Below are positions 2,758-22,636 of a stretch of DNA of 25,161 bases, one piece after another. Positions within the stretch are counted from its first letter, which is position 1; every line of letters begins with the position of its first letter. The stretch comes from a virus. The stretch is taken from the UHGV virus genome UHGV-1407879, one strand, 5' to 3'. A program made the translations under genes and the position numbers. Below the pieces are notes generated by a model. It was not told the origin of the DNA. It worked only from the letters and a program-made list of their open reading frames with translations, and made no database searches.

Positions 2758-3028
2758 AAGCACGGCCTTTCTGAAAGCACATCAAACCAAATACCAGACA
2801 GACAAAAATAATCACCTTATCCGCTGTGGCTACGGTGCGGTGTGCTTTGCATAAAAGAAAACCAGCTCAATGGCTGGCTTCGTGAAAGCGGGTGGCAAGA
2901 GGTTGCGCTAACAACCTCCTGCCGTTTTGCCCGTGCATATCGGTCACGAACAAATCTGATTACTAAACACAGTAGCCTGGATTTGTTCTATCAGTAATCG
3001 ACCTTATTCCTAATTAAATAGAGCAAAT

Positions 3029-3042
3029 CCCCTTATTGGGGG
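3029..3042 (+). promoter_or_regulatory. sdi stem-loop controlling the S dual translational start
   Basis: CCCC-TTATT-GGGGG hairpin a few nt upstream of the Met1-Lys2-Met3 start of S, as in lambda. Confidence 0.6.
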
Positions 3043-3048
3043 TAAGAC

Positions 3049-3372
3049 ATGAAGATGCCAGAAAAACATGACCTGTTAGCCGCCATTCTCGCGGCAAAGG
3101 AACAAGGCATCGGGGCAATCCTTGCGTTTGCAATGGCGTACCTTCGCGGCAGATATAATGGCGGTGCGTTTACAAAAACAGTAATCGACGCAACGATGTG
3201 CGCCATTATCGCCTGGTTCATTCGTGACCTTCTCGACTTCGCAGGACTAAGTAGCAATCTCGCTTATATAACGAGCGTGTTCATCGGCTACATCGGTACT
3301 GACTCGATTGGTTCGCTTATCAAACGCTTCGCTGCTAAAAAAGCCGGAGTAGAAGATGGTGGAAATCAATAA
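3049..3372 (+). CDS. S: Holin/antiholin S (S107/S105 dual start)
   Basis: 107 aa, near-identical to lambda S from memory ([39 protein letters not shown]...); three hydrophobic segments; MKM dual-start motif. Confidence 0.95.
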
Positions 3373-3832
3373 TCAACGTAAGGCGTTCCTCGATATGCTG
3401 GCGTGGTCAGAGGGAACTGATAACGGACGACAGAAAACCAGAAATCATGGTTATGACGTCATTGTTGGCGGAGAGCTATTCACTGATTACTCCGATCACC
3501 CTCGCAAACTTGTCACGCTTAACCCCAAACTCAAATCAACAGCAGCCGGACGTTACCAGCTTCTTTCCCGTTGGTGGGATGCCTATCGTAAGCAGCTTGG
3601 CCTGAAAGACTTCTCTCCGAAAAGCCAGGACGCTGTGGCATTGCAACAGATTAAAGAGCGTGGCGCTTTGCCGATGATTGATCGCGGTGATATCCGTCAG
3701 GCTATCGACCGTTGTAGCAATATCTGGGCTTCTCTTCCGGGCGCTGGTTATGGTCAGTTCGAGCATAAGGCTGACAGCCTGATTGCAAAATTCAAAGAAG
3801 CTGGCGGAACGGTCAGAGAGATTGAGGTATGA
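3356..3832 (+). CDS. R: Endolysin R (lytic transglycosylase)
   Basis: 158 aa, near-identical to lambda R from memory ([24 protein letters not shown]...); overlaps the S stop. Confidence 0.95.
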
Positions 3833-19160: not shown

Positions 19161-19490
19161 TTAGTCATCCATGGATGGATTGAGCTTATCTCGTGTTGAT
19201 GTGGCAATTTTACCAACATTTTTCAACCAAGATTTTAAGAAGGATATGTCGTCCTTAATATCATGAATATCCTCATTCTTTATACGATCAACCTTATCCT
19301 CTAGGCTCTCTATAGAACGCTCAATGCTAGACAGAGAGATTTTTAAGTCTCCTTGCTCACGTTCCAGTGAGGATTTGAGAGCACAATATTCGTTTTCTAG
19401 AATTCCTATTTTTTTTGTTAGAGAGTGCATTCGATACTCATACACCAAACTAGAAACGACTAATGCAGCCAACAGAAACCATTCAAGCAC
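19161..19490 (-). CDS. Small membrane-anchored coiled-coil protein (109 aa), unknown function
   Basis: GTG start preceded by AAGGAGG with about 5-nt spacing; N-terminal TM helix (LEWFLLAALVVSSLVY) then heptad-rich acidic domain; AT-rich codon usage by eye. Confidence 0.6.
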   Translation of the reverse strand: MLEWFLLAALVVSSLVYEYRMHSLTKKIGILENEYCALKSSLEREQGDLKISLSSIERSIESLEDKVDRIKNEDIHDIKDDISFLKSWLKNVGKIATSTRDKLNPSMDD

Positions 19491-19572
19491 ACCAACCTCC
19501 TTAGTTTTGTGCAGGATACCATGATGTCAGTGCAAGGGGGAGAAAGTCTCCTCATTATCTGATTTGCAATTT

Positions 19573-19608
19573 ACGTGCATATTTAAATATTGCACGTTAC
19601 AACGTGCA
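19573..19608. promoter_or_regulatory. Operator-like triple half-site ACGTGCA / TGCACGT / ACGTGCA in divergent promoter region
   Basis: ACGTGCA (19573-19579), 11-bp AT spacer TATTTAAATAT, TGCACGT (19591-19597), TACA, ACGTGCA (19602-19608); a TTGCAA -35-like hexamer lies at 19564-19569. Confidence 0.5.
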
Positions 19609-19643
19609 TGTGTATGATTGACTTATCAATCACAACACGAGAT

Positions 19644-20661: not shown

Positions 20662-20686
20662 AACCCACCTTCAGGTGGGTTTTTTG
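20662..20686. terminator. Bidirectional rho-independent terminator between convergent genes
   Basis: ACCCACC-TTCA-GGTGGGT hairpin followed by TTTTT on + strand; A-run on the other side; overlaps the last codons of mnt. Confidence 0.65.
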
Positions 20687-20922
20687 TACAAATCCTTCAG
20701 CGTATCAAACACCATCTTCTTAACAAGCTCTGACTGCTCATCAGCGAGTCGTTCTGCATCGTCGCGATAGCCTGCAATCGGTGATGGTTTTGATAGCGCA
20801 TCCTGAACGATTTGTAATAACTCTGAGTTCATTGACCTTCCGTTAGCCTCTGCTCTTAATTTCAATTTTTCTCTTACTTCCAAAGGCATACGGAAGTTAA
20901 AGTGCGGATCGTCTCTAGCCAT
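20671..20922 (-). CDS. mnt: Mnt repressor (ribbon-helix-helix)
   Basis: 83 aa, near-identical to P22 Mnt from memory (ARDDPHFNFRMP.EVREKLK.RAEANGRSMNSELLQIVQDALSKPSP...). Confidence 0.9.
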   Translation of the reverse strand: MARDDPHFNFRMPLEVREKLKLRAEANGRSMNSELLQIVQDALSKPSPIAGYRDDAERLADEQSELVKKMVFDTLKDLYKKPT

Positions 20923-20945
20923 GCCATCACTCCAAGTTAGTATCT

Positions 20946-21209
20946 CTAACTTTCGTCTTTATTGTTGCTATACATGCATTTCAACTTCTCAACATCATGT
21001 TCAAGATCTATCAATCGTGATGCTATAGTTGCAAGGTCTAGTGCTTGAATGTGTTTATTTTTTTCGGTCCATGCTTCAAGTGCCGCGACCATCTCAGCAT
21101 TTAATGAACGAGAATTAGCCTCAGCCAGTTCAATAAGACGTTCCTTTATCTCTACAGGAAGCCTCAGATTCACTTGAGGGTTTTTGTACTTACGATCAGA
21201 CATTGGCAC
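20946..21209 (-). CDS. Second Mnt/Arc-family ribbon-helix-helix regulator (87 aa)
   Basis: N-terminal RHH signature (NLRLPVEIKERLIELAEANSRSLNAEMVAAL) plus C-terminal helical extension as in Mnt; lies between mnt and the operator region. Confidence 0.7.
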   Translation of the reverse strand: MPMSDRKYKNPQVNLRLPVEIKERLIELAEANSRSLNAEMVAALEAWTEKNKHIQALDLATIASRLIDLEHDVEKLKCMYSNNKDES

Positions 21210-21249
21210 ATCCTGAATAATTTTTTACCACAGGATATGTAGGTATCTA

Positions 21250-21278
21250 TTGACTATCAATGCGTACCTAAATACTAT
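21250..21278 (+). promoter_or_regulatory. Pant-like promoter with overlapping operator repeats
   Basis: -35 TTGACT (21250-21255), 17-bp spacer, -10 TACTAT (21273-21278); palindrome ATTGA-CTA-TCAAT (21249-21261); direct repeats ATGCGTACC at 21260-21268 and 21281-21289. Confidence 0.55.
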
Positions 21279-21308
21279 GTATGCGTACCACATACAACGG
21301 AGGATGCA

Positions 21309-21449
21309 ATGAAGGTAAAAACACTGCGTATGCCAGAGAAGTTAGAAAAAATCCTTGAAGAGAAAGCAAAGGAAGAGTGTCGCTCATTTAGTGCAGAAGT
21401 AATTAAACGGGTGATGGACAGCCTGAAGAGAGAGGGGATAACGGTATGA
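21309..21449 (+). CDS. arc: Arc-like ribbon-helix-helix repressor (46 aa)
   Basis: Not in the ORF track (under 60 aa). GGAGG 6 nt upstream of ATG 21309; translation MKVKTLRMPEKLEKILEEKAKEECRSFSAEVIKRVMDSLKREGITV aligns with the P22 Arc strand-helix-helix pattern (FNLRWPREVLDLVRKVAEENGRSVNSEIYQRVMESFKKEG). Confidence 0.7.
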   Translation: MKVKTLRMPEKLEKILEEKAKEECRSFSAEVIKRVMDSLKREGITV

Positions 21450-21649
21450 GTAAAGAATGTTGTTTCTGCGGCATTAGCGAATCAGACGCTGATCAAACAT
21501 ACATTTACTCTAAAGAAACAGGTCGGATGCTGTGTAGTGACTGCGTGTTGGACATCATAAGATACAAGCATCTTGGATGTTCTGCCAGCATTAGCAATAT
21601 AGGTGAAGTATATGAAGGGAAAGATATAACTGATAGAGCAGAAAGTTGA
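21446..21649 (+). CDS. Small Cys-rich protein (67 aa), putative zinc-ribbon
   Basis: ATGA overlap with the arc stop (translational coupling); cysteine pattern CCFC...CSDC...C. Confidence 0.5.
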   Translation: MSKECCFCGISESDADQTYIYSKETGRMLCSDCVLDIIRYKHLGCSASISNIGEVYEGKDITDRAES

Positions 21650-21712
21650 AGCCCCAACTGCGGTAACAGTCAGGGCTTCGGTATCGTAAAACCACGCATA
21701 GGAATTAACGAC

Positions 21713-22636
21713 ATGAAAAGTATAGCAACAGCAGTATCTACTATCAATGTACCATTCCACGGCGCAGAGCTTTATGTTGTTAATCACAACGGTGAGCCGT
21801 ACACCCCAATGAAACCTATCGTTGAGGGAATGGGTATGGATTGGGCTTCACAGTTTACAAAGTTAAAACAAAGATTTGCTAAAGGTATTGTGGAAATCGC
21901 AATACCTTCAGTTGGCGGTGTGCAGAACATGATTTGCCTTGCTTTACGTAAACTGAATGGCTGGTTGCAAACCATCAGCCCTAACAAAGTCCGCCCTGAA
22001 ATCCGCGACAATGTAATCCAGTATCAAGAAGAGTGTGACGATGTGCTATACGAGTACTGGACTAAAGGCCATGTAGTTAACCCACGCAAAGCTAAAAAGG
22101 CGTTGCCGGGTAAAATCACCACTGAACAGCAGGAAGCCATTAAACAACTCGTCATGAGTCGCGGTCAGTCTCTGCCAAAAGAAAAACAGGCTAAGGCGAT
22201 GATCACCATGTGGTCGTCACTAAAATCCCATTTTGGATGTTCGTACAAAGAAATCAGTGAGGAGCAGTTTACCGAAGCACTATCACTTGCAGCTCGAGTT
22301 CCACTTGAAGGTGAGTTCATTGGCAAACAAGAGAAGAAAACCAACGAGCTTTCTGCAAAAGAAGCAAACAGCCTTGTATGGTTATGGGATTATGCCAACC
22401 GCTCACAGGCATTATTCCGCGAACTGTATCCGGCATTAAAACAAATTCAATCGAACTATTCCGGCAGATGTCATGACTGCGGTTATGAGTTCTCCCGTAT
22501 TATCGATATAGCGAGAGACGTTTTAATCAATCACACACGAGATGTTGATATCAATGAGCCAGACGGACCAACGAATCTTTCCGCATGGATGAGACTTAAG
22601 AATAAAGAATTACCTCCTTCAGTACATAACTACTGA
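21713..22636 (+). CDS. ant: Antirepressor Ant-like protein
   Basis: 307 aa in the position of P22 ant (downstream of arc, upstream of tailspike); assignment by synteny and size, not by recalled sequence. Confidence 0.55.
   Translation: MKSIATAVSTINVPFHGAELYVVNHNGEPYTPMKPIVEGMGMDWASQFTKLKQRFAKGIVEIAIPSVGGVQNMICLALRKLNGWLQTISPNKVRPEIRDNVIQYQEECDDVLYEYWTKGHVVNPRKAKKALPGKITTEQQEAIKQLVMSRGQSLPKEKQAKAMITMWSSLKSHFGCSYKEISEEQFTEALSLAARVPLEGEFIGKQEKKTNELSAKEANSLVWLWDYANRSQALFRELYPALKQIQSNYSGRCHDCGYEFSRIIDIARDVLINHTRDVDINEPDGPTNLSAWMRLKNKELPPSVHNY

Follow-up and report, generated by a model that had tools for sequence, protein, structure and literature searches.

Antirepressors let one phage de-repress another. 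In the immI region of phage P22, which is placed between gene 16 and the tailspike gene, a Mnt-type repressor gene is divergent from arc and ant, the promoters of the two sides overlap, and the antisense RNA sar and an antirepressor with P22_AR domains complete the set. The same layout, between a gene 16 homologue and a tailspike gene, is found in a P22-like E. coli prophage, the virus genome UHGV-1407879, which is the 25,161-nucleotide stretch of DNA analysed here (the window). In the window, however, the mnt side holds two ribbon-helix-helix (RHH) genes in tandem, a distal gene that is nearly identical to mnt of P22 and a proximal one, denoted RHH85. The sequence identifies this locus as a mosaic immI region derived from two different Mnt/Arc/ant switches, with the near-canonical P22-type mnt as a supernumerary gene that has neither a cis operator nor a promoter of its own. 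The interpretation that we adopt, with about even confidence, is that RHH85 is the cognate local repressor whereas the distal P22-type Mnt acts in trans on foreign antirepressor promoters.

The tandem arrangement itself was already deposited in 2007 with CUS-3, and the Prokaryotic Genome Annotation Pipeline (PGAP) calls three Arc-family genes. The 'ant moron' of the CUS-3/UTI89 prophage (CP000711; King 2007) contains the same tandem with 96.9% nucleotide identity and with two annotated mnt genes. This 'ant moron' was drawn by Villafane 2008, where CUS-3 and HS-1 were said apparently to lack arc (PMC2629481). The absence of arc from CUS-3 is an annotation gap because the segment 6505-6986 of CP000711, labelled 'bsq2 boundary sequence', holds both a small arc gene and a further open reading frame (ORF), here arc46 and orf67, neither of which is annotated in the record. 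The published statement is thus superseded for CUS-3, where the sequence places a divergent arc. In the searchable literature, outside of which falls the CUS-3 paper (PMC1951898), no statement was found on which mnt is the cognate one, on an operator-less P22-type gene or on stacked Mnt alleles.

Two different Mnt-type genes in tandem

The gene pair and its immediate boundaries are the following.

20671-20922, minus strand: distal P22-type mnt, 83 amino acids, N-terminus MARDDPHFNFRMP, Pfam Arc and Repressor_Mnt
20923-20945, minus strand: intergene junction, 23 nucleotides, with the native mnt Shine-Dalgarno sequence GGAG; endpoint of the P22 homology
20946-21203, minus strand: RHH85, 85 amino acids, gene 1 of the leftward operon, Pfam Arc (3.4e-10)
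20662-20681, no strand assigned: 3'-terminal GC-rich hairpin AACCCACCTTCAGGTGGGTT of the RHH85-mnt operon, overlapping the mnt stop codon (terminator scan)

Both minus-strand RHH genes are intact and arranged head-to-tail (ORF listing and translation), as described in a first-pass annotation of the sequence that placed a tandem of Mnt and Mnt-like genes at 20671-21209, and each has a Pfam Arc match. The length of 87 amino acids given there to the second protein becomes 85 with the ATG at 21203. This start appears more likely than the GTG at 21209, from which the longer ORF (20946-21209, minus strand) begins, because an AGGA motif is located 7 nucleotides 5' of the ATG whereas it directly adjoins the GTG, and because both PGAP and the CUS-3 record have a coding sequence of 258 nucleotides. 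The base directly 5' of this ATG (21204), which in the window is a T and hence an A on the coding strand, is a private substitution of the C that is found in the aligned CUS-3, Escherichia coli E50, MRE162 and LR-25, and IMG/VR loci; distant genera have other bases.

The distal gene had been called near-canonical, and the alignment bears this out: 77 of its 83 residues (93%) are identical to P22 Mnt, with a ratio of non-synonymous to synonymous substitution rates (dN/dS) of 0.06. Its N-terminus is identical to that of P22 Mnt and includes the recognition residues R2, H6, N8 and R10, and its Pfam matches are strong (Arc, PF03869, 1.1e-27; Repressor_Mnt, PF11423, 7.3e-19 at residues 53-80). RHH85 is far more divergent. 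The two proteins are only ~32% identical to each other, which rules out a duplicate pair. The possibility that RHH85 is a decayed duplicate, which the first-pass annotation had considered capable of overturning its proposal, is ruled out as well, by this low identity to its neighbour, by 141 length-conserved homologues (77-88 amino acids) across Enterobacterales, and by strong purifying selection (dN of 0.116, with dS saturated, relative to the homologue in SEN22). Neither of the two genes is a chance ORF. Members of the RHH85 family share an invariant N-terminal arm and beta-strand (R-YK-PQ-NLRL), and a heptad-like pattern of conservation marks their last 30 residues.

The Mnt-like C-terminal extension previously attributed to RHH85 is borne out by most of the comparisons. 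The best sequence match in the PDB is 1mnt (1.7e-5, phmmer), and alignment of the RHH85 and Mnt families with hhalign (98.3% probability) covers residues 7-82 and 4-83, respectively, with a 6-residue gap. Both RHH85 and the distal Mnt match PHROG 795 over the full length. The AlphaFold2 model of RHH85 (predicted local distance difference test score, pLDDT, of 80) comprises helices at residues 17-29, 34-48 and 57-83, and the long C-terminal helix is modelled with a pLDDT of 86-92. Arc-operator structures are the top Foldseek matches of this model with a probability of 1.0 but weak E-values (>=0.05); the weakness comes from the tiny size of the domain, so that the information lies solely in the ranking and the probability. 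The Pfam scan found no match to PF11423 in RHH85, and in NCBIfam none of the small proteins of the locus exceeds the cut-offs. Sequence and model together characterize RHH85 as a full-length member of the Mnt family, with an RHH domain and a long C-terminal helix. The homology of this oligomerization helix to that of Mnt is likely but falls short of proven because the narrow Repressor_Mnt model of Pfam is not matched. The recognition strands of the two proteins differ (PQVNLRLP in RHH85 vs PHFNFRMP in the distal Mnt), and a distinct operator specificity is therefore to be expected for RHH85, as had been proposed.

A cassette with its own candidate operators and promoters

In the alignment with P22, CUS-3 and SEN22, the P22 homology stops after the mnt Shine-Dalgarno sequence (~20944) and resumes only at the sar terminator between arc and ant (~21640), so that Omnt, Oarc, Pant, Pmnt and arc of P22 have all been replaced. 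The replacing cassette of ~700 bp (~20946-21640) consists of RHH85, divergent overlapping promoters, two palindromes, Arc46 and orf67, whereas its place in P22 holds only Pmnt, Pant, Oarc, Omnt and arc. Thus, RHH85 was not inserted between mnt and the P22 operator region, as initially suggested; the operators and arc of P22 are gone, and the region next to RHH85 is native to it. The elements of the cassette that face RHH85 are listed below.

21232-21260, minus strand: promoter-like site for RHH85-mnt, TTGATA-17-TATCCT (consensus scan and cross-genus conservation)
21250-21278, plus strand: Pant-like promoter for arc46-orf67-ant, TTGACT-17-TACTAT (consensus scan, conserved across genera)
21240-21270, no strand assigned: candidate operator O2, a 31-bp imperfect palindrome TAGGTATCTATTGACTATCAATGCGTACCTA centred at 21255 and spanning both -35 hexamers
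21278-21296, no strand assigned: candidate operator O1, a palindrome of 19 bp, TGTATGCGTACCACATACA, located where the Pant-like promoter is predicted to start
21309-21449, plus strand: arc46, encoding a divergent Arc-like repressor of 46 amino acids, gene 1 of the ant operon (Pfam Arc, 2.9e-9)

The intergenic control region comprises 105 bp and differs from that of P22. The two promoter-like sites overlap, their -35 hexamers sharing position 21255; the -10 hexamer of the Pant-like site is the same as in Pant of P22, and the hexamers of the minus-strand operon stay promoter-like across genera. By itself, the promoter scan is non-significant against shuffled sequences (5 sites found, 4.7 expected), so it is the position of the sites and their cross-genus conservation that support the promoter calls. 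O1 occupies the position that corresponds to the place of Omnt in P22. The motif GCGTACC is common to O1 and the right arm of O2, 21 bp apart, and 11 of the 15 pairs in O2 match, a score that is modest when taken alone (reached in 63 of 2000 shuffles). Identity in the 57-nucleotide core that encompasses both palindromes (21240-21296) amounts to 86-100% over 12 aligned loci, and to 84% in Chimaeribacter, whereas the intergenic flanks are near random and the repressors of the distant-genus loci are only 48-59% identical. Such conservation of the core is in keeping with the recognition strand of the RHH85 family, which is invariant. Covariation is uninformative for the assignment of O1 and O2: neither palindrome varies, nor does the RHH85 strand, and the only change in the Arc-like strand is a conservative one, from T to S.

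Arc46 is annotated by PGAP as an Arc-family protein, is 38% identical to P22 Arc and has no C-terminal extension; of 8 genus-level loci, 7 have inherited it together with RHH85. The module as a whole occurs in 111 complete E. coli genomes, of which 44 have the tandem and 67 do without the P22-type mnt. The combination of RHH85, the operator core and a small Arc, with no P22-type mnt, is also found in SEN22, Photorhabdus, Xenorhabdus, Chimaeribacter, Klebsiella and Citrobacter; the solo module is present in E. coli MRE162 and LR-25 and in further Salmonella prophages as well, and in Arsenophonus and Phlomobacter a gene of the RHH85 type is paired with a small divergent Arc, usually together with ant, and again there is no P22-type mnt. 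This recurrence points to RHH85 as the resident maintenance repressor. The hairpin found 3' of mnt in P22 directly follows the solo RHH85 homologue of SEN22, where there is no P22-type mnt, and RHH85 accordingly takes, in an alternative immI module, the place that mnt has in P22. Loci that contain the P22-type mnt and loci that lack it share an identical control region, to which nothing has thus been added for this gene. The first-pass annotation was thus half right: there are two Mnt-type genes in tandem, but the roles are reversed, with RHH85 as the resident and the P22-type mnt as the extra gene.

A P22-type mnt without its operator

The distal mnt has kept its native ribosome-binding site but lost Pmnt, and it follows RHH85 at a distance of 23 nucleotides. 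With up to 5 mismatches allowed, no match to the 17-bp Omnt of P22, AGGTCCACGGTGGACCT, was found in the window; with up to 4, none was found in the whole CUS-3 genome or any tandem locus examined, and with up to 3-5, none in any scanned locus with the RHH85 module. The same scan found Omnt in P22, its exact sequence in a prophage of E. coli O111:H8 and an Omnt-like palindrome in phage L, which served as positive controls. Nor did these mismatch-tolerant scans of the window, CUS-3 and all fetched loci find an Omnt hidden elsewhere.

The missing operator bears directly on the possibility, which is the model of the first-pass annotation or a variant of it, that the local antirepressor promoter is a target of both Mnt-type proteins, the P22-type Mnt providing a second layer of control in cis, for instance at O2. 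The outer arms of O2 (TAGGTAC) match those of Omnt (TAGGTCC) at 6 of 7 positions, and co-transcription of the genes, if it occurs, would supply the lysogen with both proteins. However, the arms are 17 bp apart in O2 vs 5 bp in Omnt, the control region makes no distinction between loci with and without the P22-type mnt, and in many genera RHH85 alone suffices for the module. Given also the failure to find Omnt, such double control seems improbable.

Distal mnt genes are not confined to the window. The junction 23-mer identifies 8 IMG/VR contigs, which together with the window and CUS-3 yield 9 distinct distal alleles. All 9 are full length, with 76-98% identity and invariant recognition residues, and in comparisons with dS ~1 the DNA-binding (N-terminal) half evolves with omega (dN/dS) of 0.03-0.08. 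Distal alleles with very different C-termini are paired with a nearly invariant RHH85. This pairing is relevant to the idea that the two proteins form mixed oligomers, through the C-terminal helices or the RHH domains, and thereby acquire a new specificity. The shared architecture and the common operon are compatible with this idea, but the low identity of the two proteins, the gap in the helix alignment, the unmatched PF11423 in RHH85 and the variability of the distal C-termini all speak against it, and we give it hardly any credence.

The slot behind RHH85

The position distal to RHH85 is occupied by a variety of genes. In loci L015, L016 and L029-L042, RHH85-type genes are followed by a gene for a Rap1a-domain protein (PF18602) or for proteins without a known function, of 69, 104+161, 135, 157 and 193 amino acids. 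Near the slot, some loci have a YafO toxin gene, SieA and a Panacea-domain gene, and the region looks like a hotspot for accessory or defence genes expressed in the lysogen.

Tandems were also found in Salmonella enterica (L025-L027, 2781-3571), where the RHH85 homologue is 79% identical, the junction keeps 8 more P22 nucleotides, and a ClpP-like protease gene (PF00574) overlaps the end of the distal mnt. Another S. enterica locus (L028, 1893-2147) has a distal Mnt with a different recognition strand, PQFKLRLP. In Arsenophonus nasoniae (L007), the RHH85 homologue (3001-3243) is followed, after a gap of 100 nucleotides, by a gene for an unrelated RHH protein of 79 amino acids (RHH79, 3343-3582) that has a C-terminal helix; the pair lies opposite Arc-like and antirepressor-like genes.

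From the varied operon cargo it follows that the slot behaves as a moron site expressed in the lysogen, where Mnt-type repressors landed more than once. It is tempting, if only tentatively and with somewhat less than even confidence, to view the slot as stacking heterotypic Mnt alleles (the P22 type, the PQFKLRLP type and RHH79) in a modular array for 'anti-antirepressor immunity', swappable by recombination, that would act in trans on ant of other immI types and thereby guard the resident repressor against de-repression by phages that superinfect or share the cell.

Proposed working of the locus

By analogy with P22, RHH85 would be the cognate maintenance repressor of the local immI module: in the lysogen, the protein, probably as a tetramer, would bind the conserved palindromes, shutting the Pant-like promoter and freeing the overlapping leftward promoter, like Mnt does in P22. 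Arc46 would shut both promoters during lytic growth, with sar adding antisense control, again as in P22. The distal Mnt would be produced from the RHH85 promoter as cargo of the lysogen-expressed operon; co-transcription is suggested by its own ribosome-binding site, the 23-nucleotide gap and the lack of any match between the two genes in the consensus promoter and terminator scans. In trans, this protein would bind Omnt of superinfecting or co-resident phages with a P22-type immI and keep their antirepressor off, so that their Ant could not inactivate the resident repressor and one prophage would be guarded against two immI types. For P22 itself, repression of the ant of superinfecting P22 by the Mnt of the prophage is well-established, classical genetics (Susskind 1980, cited in PMC2629481). 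Possible targets exist: P22-immI phages are common in E. coli, where 181 of 5426 genomes carry the P22-type operator region, and a distal tandem allele has a 100% identical counterpart in a solo Mnt.

Several points weigh against this scheme. The division of O1 and O2 between RHH85 and Arc46 is drawn from the P22 analogy, and, given the similarity of the arms, the P22-type Mnt could still bind O2 weakly in cis. The hairpin after mnt has its T-tract on the plus strand only, which leaves the minus strand, that of the operon, without one. Some distal alleles are the same as solo, operator-linked mnt genes; such identity indicates frequent re-import, and the intactness and low dN/dS of the distal genes may therefore reflect selection in the solo context. 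To judge from these identities, part of the constraint on the distal Mnt was probably exerted elsewhere and imported by recombination. Finally, the distal allele of one IMG/VR contig (L021, 2750-2998) has an S30L change in an RS position that is invariant in all aligned RHH proteins, which may be an inactivating change and a sign of relaxed constraint in one lineage.

The last two points would also be expected if the distal mnt is a functionless remnant of heterologous immI recombination, its persistence being due to its recent origin and to its use as a homologous 'boundary' in further recombination. The mosaic breakpoints inside mnt and the 67 E. coli modules that do without a P22-type mnt are in line with this explanation, as is the published treatment of orphan mnt genes: the one in phage L was considered a possible remnant (PMC8022706), and deletion of the Gally mnt left the survival of strain LF82 in macrophages, the only assay reported, unchanged (PMC9928086). 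A remnant, however, would hardly be expected to be full length with invariant recognition residues in all 9 alleles at dS ~1, or to retain the native ribosome-binding site. Neither does a remnant readily account for the two junction forms of the tandem, one of them with a Salmonella RHH85 partner that is only 79% identical, for the L028 slot with its different recognition strand or for the independent RHH pair in Arsenophonus. On balance, this explanation appears rather unlikely, and the action of the distal Mnt in trans on foreign antirepressor promoters, with RHH85 as the local repressor, is retained as the preferred one.

If this is the case, a prophage-encoded repressor for a foreign ant promoter would amount to a simple form of lysogeny defence that is not described in the searched literature, and it would explain the orphan mnt genes that are scattered through P22-like prophages. 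Should the distal gene be no more than a remnant, the locus would be a case of ordinary immI mosaicism. The analysis defines a second operator system of the Mnt/Arc kind, the conservation of which extends from E. coli to Photorhabdus and includes prophages of the uropathogenic E. coli/K1 strains UTI89 and RS218.

The antirepressor side and neighbouring genes

The remaining features of the ant side are the following.

21446-21649, plus strand: orf67, 67 amino acids with a CxxC-x21-CxxC pattern; its ATG overlaps the arc46 stop codon (ATGA); phrog_7150 (3.4e-50)
21644-21711, minus strand: sar, antisense RNA against the ant ribosome-binding region; RF00262, 85.7 bits, E-value 8e-18
21713-22636, plus strand: ant, antirepressor of 307 amino acids; P22_AR_N (3.2e-44) and P22_AR_C (9.2e-29)

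The orf67 product is 98.5-100% conserved in the tandem loci, whereas the gene is absent from SEN22 and MRE162; it is unannotated in CUS-3 and in the PGAP annotation of strain E50. ORFs of 73 or 89 amino acids are found at the same spot in other loci. The cysteines of orf67 are reminiscent of the C4 zinc ribbon of the ClpX type. It is an accessory insert in the ant operon and may be an extra regulator of ant. The sar match far exceeds the gathering threshold of RF00262 (43), and a promoter-like site with 10 of 12 consensus matches is located at 21747-21719 on the minus strand. The Ant protein is 56% identical to that of P22, and the tailspike gene is next downstream.

To the left of mnt, a P63C-domain gene (19590/19651-20657, plus strand; phrog_2384) represents further cargo. 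Upstream of this gene, three ACGTGCA boxes (19573; 19591, inverted; 19602) form an operator-like array at 19573-19608. The first-pass annotation had pointed to 19560-19610 as a second region to probe for binding of the Mnt proteins; this candidate operator was discarded because the boxes travel with the P63C cassette (as in locus L024) and are absent from the other tandem loci. The array bears no relation to the operators of Mnt and Arc. At 19161-19490 (minus strand), a gene encodes a predicted coiled-coil protein of 109 amino acids (phrog_5962) that has a hydrophobic segment at its N-terminus and is 50% identical to the product of the gene annotated as hkcB in CUS-3; this gene is conserved beside the gene 16 homologue in these prophages.

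Comparison with known systems

The orphan mnt genes of phages L/ST64T and Gally resemble the distal gene of the window in that a Mnt-family gene is kept in a prophage without a cognate ant. Phage L differs in having kept an Omnt-like palindrome upstream of mnt, whereas the orphan in the window has neither an operator nor a promoter and is located behind another Mnt. The palindrome of phage L (locus L005, 2910-2926) is a perfect one of 17 bp, AAGACCACGGTGGTCTT, ~63 nucleotides upstream of mnt; it resembles an Omnt variant, and both arc and ant are gone from this locus.

The immI region of the Salmonella phage SEN22 (KT630648) has an RHH85 homologue with 84% identity, a single mismatch in the 57-nucleotide core, a small Arc and the same hairpin. 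It differs in that there is a single Mnt-type gene and neither a P22-type mnt nor orf67, and that ant is disrupted by a transposon. CUS-3, with the same tandem, differs from the window in the 3' part of mnt and in the P63C cargo gene that the window has at the left. Compared with P22, the window has heterologous promoters, O1, O2 and Arc46 in place of the P22 operators, promoters and arc, two Mnt-type genes in one operon, the P22-type one without Omnt or a promoter, and an extra gene, orf67, between arc and sar.

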